From the NCBI GenBank assembly GCA_017991375.1, contig JAGOQP010000006.1:3200-67199 (forward strand): 64,000 nt of DNA, written 5' to 3'. The position numbers and the translations under genes are program-made. The DNA is from Minisyncoccota bacterium (GTDB taxonomy: Bacteria > Patescibacteriota > Minisyncoccia > UBA6257 > JAGOQP01). Of this stretch, positions 44,856 through 48,759 are shown one piece after another. Position 1 is the first letter of the stretch; every line of letters begins with the position of its first letter. The notes under the pieces are model-generated. The model ran no database searches. It saw only the letters and a program-made list of their open reading frames with translations, and was not told the DNA's origin.

Positions 44856-45989
44856 CTATTGAATAACCCCTCCCCCTAACGCACGTCCCCAGTGAGAATA
44901 AAACACCGCCGATTGCCCAGACGCGGGAAACAATTTTTCTTTTGAACCAAACAAAAGAGTGCCGTTTTGCGTTGAGCCCGCGCCAACGAGCGTTGCGCGT
45001 AAAAGTCGTTGACGATATCGCACACGAACAAGACAGTTAACGCGTTGTTTGTGATCGTACGTCGCACGCGAAGCGCTATCAAGCCAATTAATATCAGTGA
45101 TAGCGCACTCATTGCCATACAAACATTCATCACCCTCATATGCGACAATGAGTTGATTACGCGTAATATCTTTTTTTACCACATAGTACGATTTTCCTGC
45201 TGTGTTTGAAAATCCATGCTTCTGACCGACAGTATAAAACCATACCCCATCGTGCTCACCTACTTTTTTGCCATGCATATCGATAATATCGCCATGAGTA
45301 ATGGGAATGTTGTTTTTGAGAAATTCATCAAACTTAAACTTTCCTAAAAAGCACACCCCCTGTGAATCTTTTTTATCTGCCGTTGGAATCCCAGCTTTGC
45401 GCGCAATAGCGCGCACTTTCTTTTTGGTCAGATGCCCAATAGGAAAGAGAATTTTTTCAAATCGCTCGCGCGGAACCTGCCACAAGAAATATGTTTGATC
45501 TTTTGATAAGTCATTTGCCTGGTAGAGAGCATGCTCTTTTTGTATCAACCACTTACCAAAACTAACTTTTGTTTTTAGACGAGCATAGTGCCCAGAGGCG
45601 ACATAATCGGCACCCAACTCTATGGCCTTATCAAAAAACAGCCCGAATTTGATAGCGCTATTGCACACCACATCGGGATTTGGCGTGATGCCCTTTCTAT
45701 AACCATCTAAGAGATACGACACCACGCGCTGTTTATATTCTTTTTCAAGATCAAAAACATAAAAAGGAATACCCAAGTGTTGGGCTACCCGTCGAGCATC
45801 CTCTCCCTCCTTATCTTGACAGCCATCAACATTGTACCCACGAATAAAGCCGCCGATCACTCGATATCCTTGTTTTTGCAAAAGCAATGCCGCGACAGAC
45901 GAATCCACGCCTCCAGACATCGCAACGAGAACTTTTTTATTTTTTTTATTTTTGGAAAACATTTCTTCTAAGGTTATATGTATTTCCAT
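44856..45989 (-). CDS. mnmA: tRNA-specific 2-thiouridylase MnmA
   Basis: PP-loop KVLVAMSGGVDSSVAALLL; the C-terminal domain is conserved. The start may be at 45962, which overlaps the RT 3' end by 17-44 nt. Confidence 0.9.
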   Translation of the reverse strand: MEIHITLEEMFSKNKKNKKVLVAMSGGVDSSVAALLLQKQGYRVIGGFIRGYNVDGCQDKEGEDARRVAQHLGIPFYVFDLEKEYKQRVVSYLLDGYRKGITPNPDVVCNSAIKFGLFFDKAIELGADYVASGHYARLKTKVSFGKWLIQKEHALYQANDLSKDQTYFLWQVPRERFEKILFPIGHLTKKKVRAIARKAGIPTADKKDSQGVCFLGKFKFDEFLKNNIPITHGDIIDMHGKKVGEHDGVWFYTVGQKHGFSNTAGKSYYVVKKDITRNQLIVAYEGDECLYGNECAITDINWLDSASRATYDHKQRVNCLVRVRYRQRLLRATLVGAGSTQNGTLLFGSKEKLFPASGQSAVFYSHWGRALGGGVIQ

Positions 45990-46929
45990 GCTTTATCAAT
46001 CCAAGATAGGAGTTGACAACTTGAGAGCTGTTAGTAGTCCGCAGTTTTTTTATCATCTTTCTTTTTGTGGAAGTTCTCAGGATTCTGTGGTCAGGAAAGG
46101 AAACCCAACCAAGAAAGTCGATGCCCGAAGATAATGCTTTTATAGAAACCTTGCCGGAATGAAGATGAAGTTTAAGGTTATGTTCGAGGAAATGGGATGT
46201 TTGGGAGATGAGGTTGATGAGATAATCCCTGTTTTCCGACAAAACAACAAAATCATCCGCGTATCTGATGTAACACTTCACTCTGAGGATATGCTTTATA
46301 TATTGATCAAAGGAGTTCATATAGACATTAACAAAGAGCTGGGAAGTGAGATTCCCAAGGGGAAGACCAACATCATCTTTTGTTGAGTGAAAACTGTTTA
46401 TGATTTCTTCAAAAAGCCAGATAATACCCTTGTCTGGAATGTACTGTTTGAGAGTAGAGATAAGAATTTGATGGTCTATATTGTCAAAGAACCTTCTGAT
46501 ATCACACTTGAGAGCCCAACAGGTTTTGGTGTTGTTCTGGCTGACTATATAAAAATAATTTCTGAGTTGATTTATGGCCTTGTGAGTTCCTTTATTGAGA
46601 CGACAAGAATAAGATGTATGGGAGAAAGTTTTATCAAAGAAGGGATAAAGGATTCTGTAGATGGCATGGTGTAATAATCTGTCTCTAACTTGAGCTTTGC
46701 TGATAATTCGAGGTTTAGGGTCAGATATTTTGAATTGTTCGTATCCTCCGTGTTTGTAGGTTTTGTTTTGAAGATCGTTACGAAGTGATATAATATTATT
46801 CATCAGTTGGAATTGAAATAACTGGACATCAGATTTGTTTCTTTTTCCTCTGATAAACTCCCTCCAGGCGAAAAGCAGATTATCAATACTGATAATATCT
46901 TCAAAGTTATGATTCAATATAATTTTCAT
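45946..46929 (-). CDS. Diversity-generating retroelement reverse transcriptase
   Basis: Collinear similarity to Bordetella phage bRT: NLLFAWREF.RGKR, DPKPR.IS...RDRLLHHAI, YSCRLNKGTH, motif A CDIRRFFDNIDH, motif B GLPLGNLTSQLFVNVY (the DGR SQ variant), motif C IRYADDFVVL, and GIDFLGW. Confidence 0.88.
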   Translation of the reverse strand: MKIILNHNFEDIISIDNLLFAWREFIRGKRNKSDVQLFQFQLMNNIISLRNDLQNKTYKHGGYEQFKISDPKPRIISKAQVRDRLLHHAIYRILYPFFDKTFSHTSYSCRLNKGTHKAINQLRNYFYIVSQNNTKTCWALKCDIRRFFDNIDHQILISTLKQYIPDKGIIWLFEEIINSFHSTKDDVGLPLGNLTSQLFVNVYMNSFDQYIKHILRVKCYIRYADDFVVLSENRDYLINLISQTSHFLEHNLKLHLHSGKVSIKALSSGIDFLGWVSFPDHRILRTSTKRKMIKKLRTTNSSQVVNSYLGLIKHGNTYNLRRNVFQK

Positions 46930-46945
46930 AAAGATTTTTCTTTAA

Positions 46946-46955
46946 CCCCCCCCCC
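46946..46955. repeat. C10/G10 homopolymer tract in the divergent RT/avd promoter region
   Basis: cccccccccc lies 17 nt upstream of the RT start codon and between the putative -35 and the TATAAT (46968-46973) of avd. Confidence 0.8.
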
Positions 46956-46990
46956 GCAACAATCTGACTATAATACAGAAGCTGGTTGGT

Positions 46991-47317
46991 GTGTATAAGT
47001 TATGGCATGAGTTTCTAAATCATTTTCATAAACAATCCAGATACACATTGGGAGAAAAGATTGATAATTTGTTTATTGAAATAATAGAGTTAGTTTTTAC
47101 AGCTATACATCTGAGCAAAGATCAAAAATTTCCGTATCTGCAGAAAGCCAGTATAAAGTTGGATATTCTAAAATTTTTTGTTCAAATGACTTGGGAAATG
47201 GGAATTTTGGACAATAAAAAATATGTTTTGCTTTCGGAAGATTTAGAAGAAATTGGTAAAATGTTGGGAGGATGGTTGAGGCAGTTTATAAAAAACTCCC
47301 CGCAGAAAGCGAGGTGA
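46991..47317 (+). CDS. avd: DGR accessory variability determinant (Avd, four-helix-bundle protein)
   Basis: 108 aa. The C-terminus EDLEEIGKMLGGWLRQFIKN matches bAvd VLIAEVGRILGSWIARVNRK. GTG start. Divergent from the RT. Confidence 0.65.
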   Translation: MYKLWHEFLNHFHKQSRYTLGEKIDNLFIEIIELVFTAIHLSKDQKFPYLQKASIKLDILKFFVQMTWEMGILDNKKYVLLSEDLEEIGKMLGGWLRQFIKNSPQKAR

Positions 47318-47321
47318 AAAC

Positions 47322-47456
47322 AAAACGACTTTCGGAATCCAACGACGCGGCAGTAGGAGTTGAAGTTGTTACTGAGCCAATTGTCGTTCCGATTCCACTG
47401 GCCATCGTTGAAGTTCAGGTACTGAACGTTGCGATTGCCGTTCTCGTCGAGCAGAA
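47322..47456 (-). repeat. DGR template repeat (TR)
   Basis: 135-bp direct repeat of 47794-47928. At all 12 mismatched positions this copy has A on the minus strand, and the codons are AAC/AAT-rich (NGNRNVQYLNFNDGQWNRNDNWLSNNFNSY). Confidence 0.85.
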
Positions 47457-47741
47457 ATGTATGCGACACCATCTATGCCACCATCCCTTAAATACTTTCG
47501 GGATTGAATATTGCTTGGAATCTCCTCCGACAATTATCGGAGTAATTCTCCAGCGTCGCATACCAAGTTGTTTTATTTTTGGAAATATGCAAACTCCCTG
47601 ACGCAAGGCGTACCCGGCGTCACTCTCATTACACATATTTCAGAATTCGGTCGCGTAAAGCCCTGCCTACCAGTAGGCAAACCGCACGCATACGAACCTA
47701 ATATCCGTTTCCACCATATCAGTTTTGTTGAAAATTTAAAA

Positions 47742-47788
47742 GGGACCAAGGAGTCAAGCGCGGCAAGGCGCAAGAACTCCAAGGTCCC
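47742..47788 (-). promoter_or_regulatory. GC hairpin immediately 3' of the VR (DGR target-site hairpin / terminator)
   Basis: Minus strand: GGGACCTTGGAGT-tcttgcgccttgccgcgcttg-ACTCCTTGGTCCC followed by a T-run; central TT-TT mismatch. It lies 10 nt after the target-gene stop. Confidence 0.6.
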
Positions 47789-47793
47789 AAGGG

Positions 47794-47928
47794 AAAACTA
47801 CTTGCGGAATCCAACGACGCGGCAGCAGGAGTTGAAGTAGCTACTGAGCCAATAGTCGTTCCGATACCACTGGCCAACGTGGAAGATCAGGCACTGAACG
47901 TGGCGATTGCCGTACTCGTCGAGCAGAA
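47794..47928 (-). repeat. DGR variable repeat (VR) at the 3' end of the target gene
   Basis: It differs from the TR at 12 positions, all TR adenines (coding strand). Encodes ...LLDEYGNRHVQCLIFHVGQWYRNDYWLSSYFNSCCRVVGFRK*. Confidence 0.85.
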
Positions 47929-48391
47929 CCGTACCGGGGAAGATCAGTACGAACTTCTGCCACTCTTCCGGAACGAGTTCCGGATGGGTAGCTAGACGCT
48001 CGAATGTCCGGTTGCCCGCAGGGAAGGTCTTGGCGAGAGAGCGCTTGAGCATCTCCTCGCCATTAACGCAGGACTCGCCGGCAGAGCAGAACTCGATCAA
48101 CTCGAGCTCCACGTCCTTGCCGGCAAAGGGCTCTTCGTGGTTTTCTGCGACCTCCTTTGCCCAAGGGGGCAGAGTGAGAGCGGAGGGGAGAACAAGGCGA
48201 ATGATGTTGCGCGCCTTCCGCCCAGCCTCCACGATATCGCCAGCCCATTTGTCAATGAGCGGCGACCCGTCCTTGAGGGCATTGTACACGTCCTCGATTG
48301 TGCCACCAAGCCGCTCGACCGCCCTGAAAAGGGCGATGAAAAAGCTGGCGGCAAACCCAAGCCCACTCACGATTGAAGTATTCTTAGCCAT
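47798..48391 (-). CDS. DGR target (variable) protein, small secreted/membrane-anchored
   Basis: Start trimmed to MAKNTSIVSGLGFAASFFIALF (signal/TM) with RBS GGGGGAGGAAG. The VR forms the C-terminal 44 aa. Confidence 0.7.
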   Translation of the reverse strand: MAKNTSIVSGLGFAASFFIALFRAVERLGGTIEDVYNALKDGSPLIDKWAGDIVEAGRKARNIIRLVLPSALTLPPWAKEVAENHEEPFAGKDVELELIEFCSAGESCVNGEEMLKRSLAKTFPAGNRTFERLATHPELVPEEWQKFVLIFPGTVLLDEYGNRHVQCLIFHVGQWYRNDYWLSSYFNSCCRVVGFRK

Positions 48392-48491: not shown

Positions 48492-48560
48492 GTTTGTATG
48501 CAGTTTTTGACACATAACATATATGTTATGTCTACATTGACCCAAAAACTGCATACAAAC
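48492..48560 (-). promoter_or_regulatory. 17-bp perfect inverted repeat flanking a 20-bp palindrome in the target-gene leader
   Basis: gtttgtatgcagttttt ... aaaaactgcatacaaac, with the inner palindrome acataacatatatgttatgt. It lies between the promoter (48602-48631) and the start codon. Confidence 0.6.
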
Positions 48561-48574
48561 ATCTTCCACAAGTA

Positions 48575-48640
48575 GTATTTTAGCGTGCTTTTAACAAACA
48601 GATTATAACATATTATATGCTATTTTGTCAAGTGCTTTCG
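48575..48640 (-). promoter_or_regulatory. Conserved near-consensus promoter plus leader, copy 3 (drives the DGR target gene)
   Basis: TTGACA (48626-48631), spacer aaatagcatataatatgt (18 nt), TATAAT (48602-48607), leader ...aaaagcacgctaaaatac. Confidence 0.65.
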
Positions 48641-48759
48641 GGATGAAATTAGTTATTTGAAAAAATATAAACACATCGTTTTAAAAAGCAAAGGCGCTCT
48701 CTCAAGCGCCTTCCATCTCCGTTTTTAGTTATTATTAATAATTGCCAATTACAAGTCAT

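Follow-up and report, generated by a model that had tools for sequence, protein, structure and literature searches.

In the diversity-generating retroelement (DGR) of the Bordetella phage BPP-1, arranged mtd-avd-TR-brt, a complex of reverse transcriptase (RT) and accessory variability determinant (Avd) binds an RNA containing the template repeat (TR), misincorporation occurs opposite adenines as the cDNA is made, and this cDNA replaces the variable repeat (VR) (PMC5758913; bioRxiv 10.1101/2023.10.23.563531). For 207 of 278 DGRs, Avd-binding stem-loops have been predicted just 3' of the TR (Handa et al., bioRxiv 10.1101/2023.10.23.563531), and the motif between TR and RT in BPP-1 is known as RT-10 (Weinberg et al. 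2017). For members of the CPR (candidate phyla radiation), Wu et al. 2018 (PMC5758913) found the architecture B3, TR-(avd)-RT, in 90% of their CPR set, and Roux et al. 2021 (PMC8144416) described a Patescibacteria-restricted DGR clade (clade 2) with targets that lack recognizable domains. Here we describe a DGR in a stretch of 64,000 nucleotides from a Minisyncoccota bacterium assembly (GCA_017991375.1, contig JAGOQP010000006.1, positions 3,200 to 67,199 of the forward strand), hereafter the window, with all positions counted from its first base. We conclude with high confidence that the DGR is complete, lies on the chromosome, has been active recently and follows the CPR-typical B3 layout, residing in a Candidatus Paceibacterota genome and acting on a small lectin-fold target. 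Its parts are intact, its TR and VR differ at TR adenines, and an identical cassette carries different VRs in two populations.

The TR lies on the minus strand at 47328-47456, with homology to the VR running on to 47322, and the VR lies on the same strand at 47800-47928, where it forms the last 43 codons of a target open reading frame (ORF) at 47798-48391; the VR is thus within a protein-coding gene, at its 3' end. Minus-strand alignment of 47300-47480 with 47772-47952 yielded an ungapped repeat of 135 bp at an offset of 472 (47322-47456 and 47794-47928), in agreement with the direct repeat reported in an initial annotation made from the sequence letters. That annotation had counted exactly 12 differences, every one at a TR adenine; a base-by-base recount gave 13 mismatches. 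At twelve of these the lower copy reads A (T on the plus strand) where the upper one has C, G or T (P=2e-7), while the thirteenth, a C at 47327 in the TR and an A at 47799 in the VR, falls at the stop codon and creates the TAG that ends the target. The adenine rule holds without exception in the 129-bp core at 47328-47456, where all 12 mismatches are located at the 35 A present among 129 bases (hypergeometric P=3e-8). Eleven of the 12 adenine substitutions are non-synonymous and fall at the first or second codon position, leaving CGA to CGC at 47804 as the sole synonymous change. The reading frame of the TR is rich in Asn codons, and both peptide strings quoted for the two copies were correct. 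A search of the whole window with the TR, treating each A as N, found no third copy of the repeat.

The genes beside the repeats determine how this pair is to be read. The RT is a protein of 327 aa encoded on the minus strand at 45946-46929 (Pfam RVT_1, E=4.6e-25). If the repeats were an ordinary duplication or paralogous fragment that had diverged by normal mutation, lying by chance beside an RT of the group II intron or retron type, the NCBIfam result would be as expected, as the best match there was a group II intron RT model (146 bits, below its cutoff of 300) and no DGR-specific RT match was obtained in that scan. However, the best match among all solved structures is the Bordetella phage bRT (8ub7_A, E=2.4e-40, residues 10-296 aligned), with LGNLTSQ of the window RT aligned to IGSLTSQ of bRT and the catalytic YADD aligned to YMDD, which bears out the likeness and both motifs that had been proposed from the letters. 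The RT therefore combines the DGR-type motif [I/L]GxxxSQ, ending in SQ and not the intron-type SP, with a catalytic YxDD and bRT as its nearest solved relative. In addition, an avd gene of 108 aa is present at 46991-47317 (Pfam bAvd, 56 bits, above the cutoff of 40). The initial annotation had recognized an adjacent Avd-like ORF correctly; its strand requires correction, as avd is encoded on the plus strand and the RT, TR and target on the minus strand, with avd pointing away from the RT and towards the TR. No conserved ORF covers the lower repeat copy, which sits within covarying RNA, and the same arrangement occurs in many genomes. Ordinary duplication is already contradicted by the adenine bias (P=3e-8), the recurring layout and the VR comparison between strains given below, and the probability that we assign to it is close to negligible.

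The reading as a DGR is reinforced by the layout and lineage of the locus. The window matches a Candidatus Paceibacterota metagenome-assembled genome (MAG), and the target is identical to MBP6855878.1 (Candidatus Pacebacteria), so that the description of the system as CPR-style was apt. RT relatives of 45-62% identity were found in Patescibacteria MAGs, and the order target(VR)-TR-(avd reversed)-RT, together with mismatches at TR adenines, recurs in approximately 17 Patescibacteria loci. The reversed orientation of avd is also seen in 18 relatives (L001-L018), giving TR-(avd on the reverse strand)-RT in a Patescibacteria genome as the shared CPR-type arrangement; placement in the clade rests on RT best matches and not on an RT phylogeny. 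In comparison with the published CPR DGRs (B3, PMC5758913; clade 2, PMC8144416), the locus shares TR-(avd reversed)-RT with the target upstream, a Patescibacteria host, a small target with no recognizable domain and a VR at its C-terminus, and RT relatives that all come from such genomes, and it differs in nothing fundamental. As this layout and lineage are published, the element is a further member of a known CPR DGR type. The initial annotation had called it undescribed, which applies to this instance and not to the architecture or lineage.

The strongest evidence for activity is a comparison between samples. L192, a Logan contig from run ERR7015365, encodes an identical RT protein and aligns to window positions 48633-42946 at 98.7% identity. 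There are 0 mismatches in the 2,095 bp from 47788 to 45694, covering the RNA domain, TR, avd and RT, and the flanking housekeeping genes differ by approximately 1.2%. The non-VR part of the target differs by approximately 2%, mostly through amino-acid changes. In the VR, 22 of 135 positions differ, 19 of them at TR adenines, with the TR 100% identical; the expectation that the VR varies at TR adenines while the TR stays constant is thus borne out between populations. Measured against the shared TR, the L192 VR is mismatched at 16 A and 4 non-A positions; among the latter is the stop-codon difference (47327 C, 47799 A), which is fixed and common to both VR alleles. With no differences in the cassette, 22 in the VR and approximately 1.2% in the flanks, the pattern implies that VR turnover has been faster than background divergence. 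The absence of any difference over the 2,095-bp cassette between flanks that have diverged by approximately 1.2% also suggests a recent cassette exchange or selective sweep between the two strains. Another assembly, L193, matches the window exactly but stops short of the VR, providing no further allele. At one site the comparison altered our interpretation. Position 47804, where the VRs of all relatives have C, had been considered a fixed difference between initiation of mutagenic homing (IMH) and IMH* sequences, and this was dropped as a firm claim because an A-to-G change at 47802 in L192 places mutagenesis beyond 47804, reaching to 2 nt or less from the stop codon.

Several points weigh against a complete and recently active element. 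The Avd ORF scores 70.7 against NCBIfam DivGenRetAVD, below the cutoff of 80. The L192 VR has three non-adenine changes besides the shared stop-codon difference, and a third assembly, SRR11088371 (L068), has the VR of the window with one G-to-A change at a non-adenine site. The evidence for VR diversity lies between samples and at assembly level, and activity in the CPR DGR clade is reported to be lower than average (Roux et al. 2021, PMC8144416). The ends of the template RNA, its binding by RT-Avd and the priming site are features that we infer. The assembly-level evidence, the lower activity reported for the clade and the presence of the same 12 substitutions in two assemblies would each suit a fossil DGR, one that formerly diversified its VR and has since fallen silent, leaving alleles that are ancient polymorphisms passed on by descent, but such a fossil would not readily account for 22 differences in a 135-bp VR beside none in a 2,095-bp cassette and approximately 1.2% in the flanks. 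The RT, Avd, TR, promoter and RNA helices are moreover all intact, and we consider a silent system unlikely, retaining recent activity as the better account of the locus.

The contrast between cassette and flanks also bears on where the element resides. An identical cassette in strains with 1.2% flank divergence hints at recent transfer, and the GC content of its genes is unlike the surroundings (32-36% in the RT and avd, with the RT at 36%, and 58% in the target, compared to 44% in the window), as might be seen if the cassette belonged to a phage or mobile element and its target were a phage receptor-binding protein. Set against this are the neighbors in both strains, which are the housekeeping genes efp, mnmA and a CobA/CobO/BtuR-family gene, the lack of phage genes nearby, and the report that the CPR DGR clade is cellular (Roux et al. 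2021, PMC8144416). We therefore regard a mobile cassette as very unlikely and a chromosomal DGR as the preferred reading. The GC shift of the target spans the whole gene and not the VR alone, and in most relatives (L001-L017) target genes are 10-25 points higher in GC, and lower in A, than their own RT genes. The target genes also stand apart in the same direction from the neighboring avd genes and from the genome.

The target is a protein of 197 aa (MBP6855878.1; 47798-48391, minus strand) with an N-terminal three-helix domain and a C-terminal lectin-fold domain in its predicted structure. Its ATG start codon has a good Shine-Dalgarno sequence, and an upstream GTG has none. A consensus sigma-70 promoter of the gene is located at 48602-48631 on the minus strand (TTGACA-18-TATAAT); it matches the consensus at 12 of 12 positions and has a TG extension ahead of the -10 box. 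The 5' leader (48492-48560, minus strand) holds a perfect 18-bp inverted repeat whose 33-nt loop contains a second palindrome, and the inverted-repeat sequence was found nowhere else in the window. In L192, a 1,079-bp insertion (L192:215-1293) is present directly upstream of the -35 box of this promoter, between window positions 48645 and 48633; it codes for a protein of 335 aa containing an HTH_38 domain, and we regard it as a probable insertion sequence element.

The target itself has no Pfam or NCBIfam match. A word-indexed search returned five relatives, and a profile search of 1.84 billion representatives returned 1,179 family members at E<=1e-3, most of them 110-250 aa in length with a common C-terminal region of approximately 100 residues. 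No Pfam match was found in the C-terminal domain of the 72 family members scanned, and neither the target nor these 72 relatives matched the known lectin and FGE-sulfatase families of Pfam and NCBIfam. The fold of the C-terminus had been raised as a question in the initial annotation. A first structure model from 5 sequences was poor, with a predicted local distance difference test score (pLDDT) of 67.6, and was superseded by an AlphaFold model from a 72-sequence alignment (pLDDT 91.7), in which the VR-bearing C-terminal domain is predicted to adopt a C-type lectin fold, as in the DGR variable proteins Mtd (1yu0) and TvpA (2y3c). Across the family, positions that derive from A-bearing TR codons have an entropy of 2.74 bits, compared to 1.39 bits at the remaining positions (P=4e-6).

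The target had also been described as signal-anchored, which remains unproven. A hydrophobic stretch does span residues 7-25 (Kyte-Doolittle 1.92), but the AlphaFold model packs it into the three-helix bundle. As a hydrophobic segment of this kind occurs in 14 of 72 family members, at varying positions, and is therefore not conserved in the family, we do not adopt the signal anchor. CPR DGR targets are typically without transmembrane segments (Roux et al. 2021, PMC8144416). A paralogue of the target, P0003 (also P0008; KBC26_00880), is encoded on another contig of the same MAG; it has 138 aa, shares 71% identity and is missing the N-terminal domain. Changing only the adenines of this TR would not produce four or five of the residues in its VR, and the paralogue may be a second target, remote or decayed. 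Other family members are far longer (P0012, P0014, P0017 and P0021, 346-804 aa), and because each gives 2-4 separate profile matches, they may hold tandem copies of the small lectin-fold domain.

With avd reversed, the question arises of where this system places the RNA features found 3' of the TR in the phage. At the 5' end of the TR, a structured RNA element is located at 47457-47582 on the minus strand, consisting of a duplex strand (P0a), an invariant ACUUGGU and then the helices P1 (12 bp), P2 (5 bp) and P3 (5 bp), all within approximately 125 nt directly 5' of the TR. Of the 22 pairs in P1-P3, 19 are changed on both sides among the relatives, and 88.8% of alignment cells are paired, compared to 34-49% when the partners are slid. 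A covariance model of this TR-adjacent element, R1, built from 15 loci, scores 105 bits in the window and gave one match per B3 locus, including L013 and L018, which were not used in training, with none elsewhere in 0.6 Mb. R1 also matched the untrained loci L086, L123 and L132. A scan of metagenomes with a loose pattern recovered 3 true loci among the 80 matches listed, all three being DGRs in which the R1 match stood directly before an adenine-biased TR; avd is reversed in both of the contigs that extend far enough to include it.

Further upstream in the same RNA, RNAalifold on 16 loci predicted two helices, A and B (47585-47697, minus strand), with 22 pairs, 18 of them showing compensatory changes, and the VR-TR spacer of the window folds with z = -4.65. 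In all, the structured domain between target and TR measures approximately 250 nt (47457-47706, minus strand) and is present in L001-L014, L018, L070, L086, L123 and L132. A long-range duplex bridges the TR, pairing the segment 5' of P1 with the 8-10 nt directly 3' of the TR. In the window its 3' strand, P0b (47319-47326, minus strand), pairs with 47570-47577, and the invariant ACUUGGU sits between P0a and P1. All 7 of 7 pairs of this duplex are changed on both sides, with 92.9% of cells paired compared to 46-55% when slid.

Candidate ends for the RNA that contains these elements can also be recognized. An extended -10 promoter, TGATATGGT, is located at 47713-47721 on the minus strand, with a predicted start near 47706, and most of 18 loci have the pattern TGnTAnnnT at a distance of 119-157 nt upstream of R1, compared to a background of 1.4 per kb. 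Directly 3' of the TR, a terminator scan identified a stem-loop and U-run at 47288-47314 on the minus strand (hairpin 47298-47314), and a CUCC...GGAG-UUUU hairpin follows the TR in all relatives, with differing stem sequences. In the window this hairpin overlaps the last codons of the convergent avd; it could be an Avd-binding stem-loop, a terminator or both. From promoter to terminator, these signals would delimit a discrete minus-strand RNA of approximately 415 nt, from approximately 47706 to approximately 47290.

Just after the VR, a CTTGG array with a period of approximately 8 nt extends over 47740-47797 (minus strand) and includes an imperfect hairpin (47742-47788) and a T-run. Counted over 16 loci, the 100 nt that follow the VR hold 30 copies of CTTGG compared to 1.9 expected, a 16-fold excess (P about 1e-25), and the same pentamer recurs within the invariant ACUUGGU of the RNA. 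The arrays may mark the target site. None of these RNA features corresponded to a known family. An Rfam scan of the window at the gathering threshold gave one tRNA only, at permissive thresholds 47200-47850 yielded just two matches, both at chance level and to unrelated small RNA families, and the Rfam RT-associated motifs (RT-1 to RT-19, including RT-10) were not found in the TR flanks; Rfam 15 should include the RT-associated motifs of Weinberg et al. 2017. No description of the RNA domain, the TR-bridging duplex, the CTTGG arrays or the poly-G tract described below was found in Rfam 15 or in the literature searched, a body of work that excludes the primary CPR survey (Paul et al. 2017).

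The poly-G tract (G10) lies between avd and the RT at 46946-46955 on the minus strand, 16 nt ahead of the start codon of the RT, and is the sole G or C homopolymer of at least 8 in the 64-kb window. G8-G14 occurs at the same position in the CPR-clade relatives L001-L015 and L017 and, among the relatives compared, is absent at L016, L018, L024 and other, non-CPR RT loci. The tract could act as a slippage-prone switch. G10 is present in all three assemblies of the strain, with no length difference among them, and length variation is therefore unproven. At its other end, the RT gene runs into its neighbor, as its last 44 nt (45946-45989) are shared with the annotated start of a tRNA 2-thiouridylase gene (mnmA), which lies downstream on the same strand. 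This overlap suggests that the RT is co-transcribed with a housekeeping gene.

In comparison with the BPP-1 DGR, homology of the window RT to bRT extends along almost the whole protein, and motif B and the catalytic box are alike in both. The two systems also have in common an Avd, TR/VR differences specific to adenines and the location of the VR in a C-terminal lectin-fold domain. The TR-bridging duplex parallels the 'cPRT Stop' duplex of the phage, which likewise involves segments upstream and downstream of the TR, and the stem-loop just 3' of the TR parallels the Avd-binding stem-loop. However, there is no room here for the 140-nt spacer RNA before the terminator-like hairpin, and the large structured domain lies instead 5' of the TR. 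The element is chromosomal and not phage-borne, its target has 197 aa and is not a tail fibre, CTTGG arrays follow the VR where the phage has a GC-rich cruciform, and no Rfam RT motif, RT-10 included, is matched.

From the Bordetella phage paradigm and this comparative anatomy, we infer how the element may work. An RNA of approximately 415 nt would be transcribed on the minus strand from the extended -10 promoter near 47721 to the hairpin and U-run near 47290, and its 250-nt structured 5' domain, together with the TR-bridging duplex, would recruit the RT-Avd complex. The structured 5' domain may be the RT/Avd-binding scaffold in DGRs with a reversed avd. The RT would then copy the TR into cDNA, misincorporating opposite adenines, and replacement of the VR by this cDNA would recode up to 22 codons on the surface of the C-type-lectin-fold domain, the outcome being a variable ligand-binding protein.

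A broader proposal, which we put forward tentatively and consider possible but somewhat short of probable, is that CPR B3 DGRs as a group, which surveys have described as enriched in CPR genomes, run on a differently organized template RNA of approximately 415 nt. This RNA would have its own extended -10 promoter and terminator, a scaffold (A, B, P1-P3 and ACUUGGU) placed 5' of the TR and a long-range duplex to the TR 3' end, with a CTTGG array after every VR serving as the target-site mark and G8-G14 as an on/off switch for hypermutation. If this were true, the template RNA would be a permutation of the Bordetella TR-spacer RNA. We know of no studies of cDNA priming or target recognition in DGRs with a reversed avd.

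As one more among thousands of CPR DGRs, this element is not news by its existence alone. Its value is in part that of a natural experiment, in which two populations carry a base-for-base identical cassette with extensively different VRs, and this contrast supports activity in nature for a little-studied CPR lineage that surveys have rated less active than average. The target family is a compact scaffold for massive variation, with more than 1,000 representatives, no Pfam model and a minimal lectin fold of approximately 100 residues. Finally, the relatives reveal a conserved non-coding set of promoter, structured 5' RNA, TR-bridging duplex, 3' hairpin, CTTGG arrays and poly-G, and these signals, as defined sequences that can be mutated in a reconstituted system, are the part of the finding worth pursuing.

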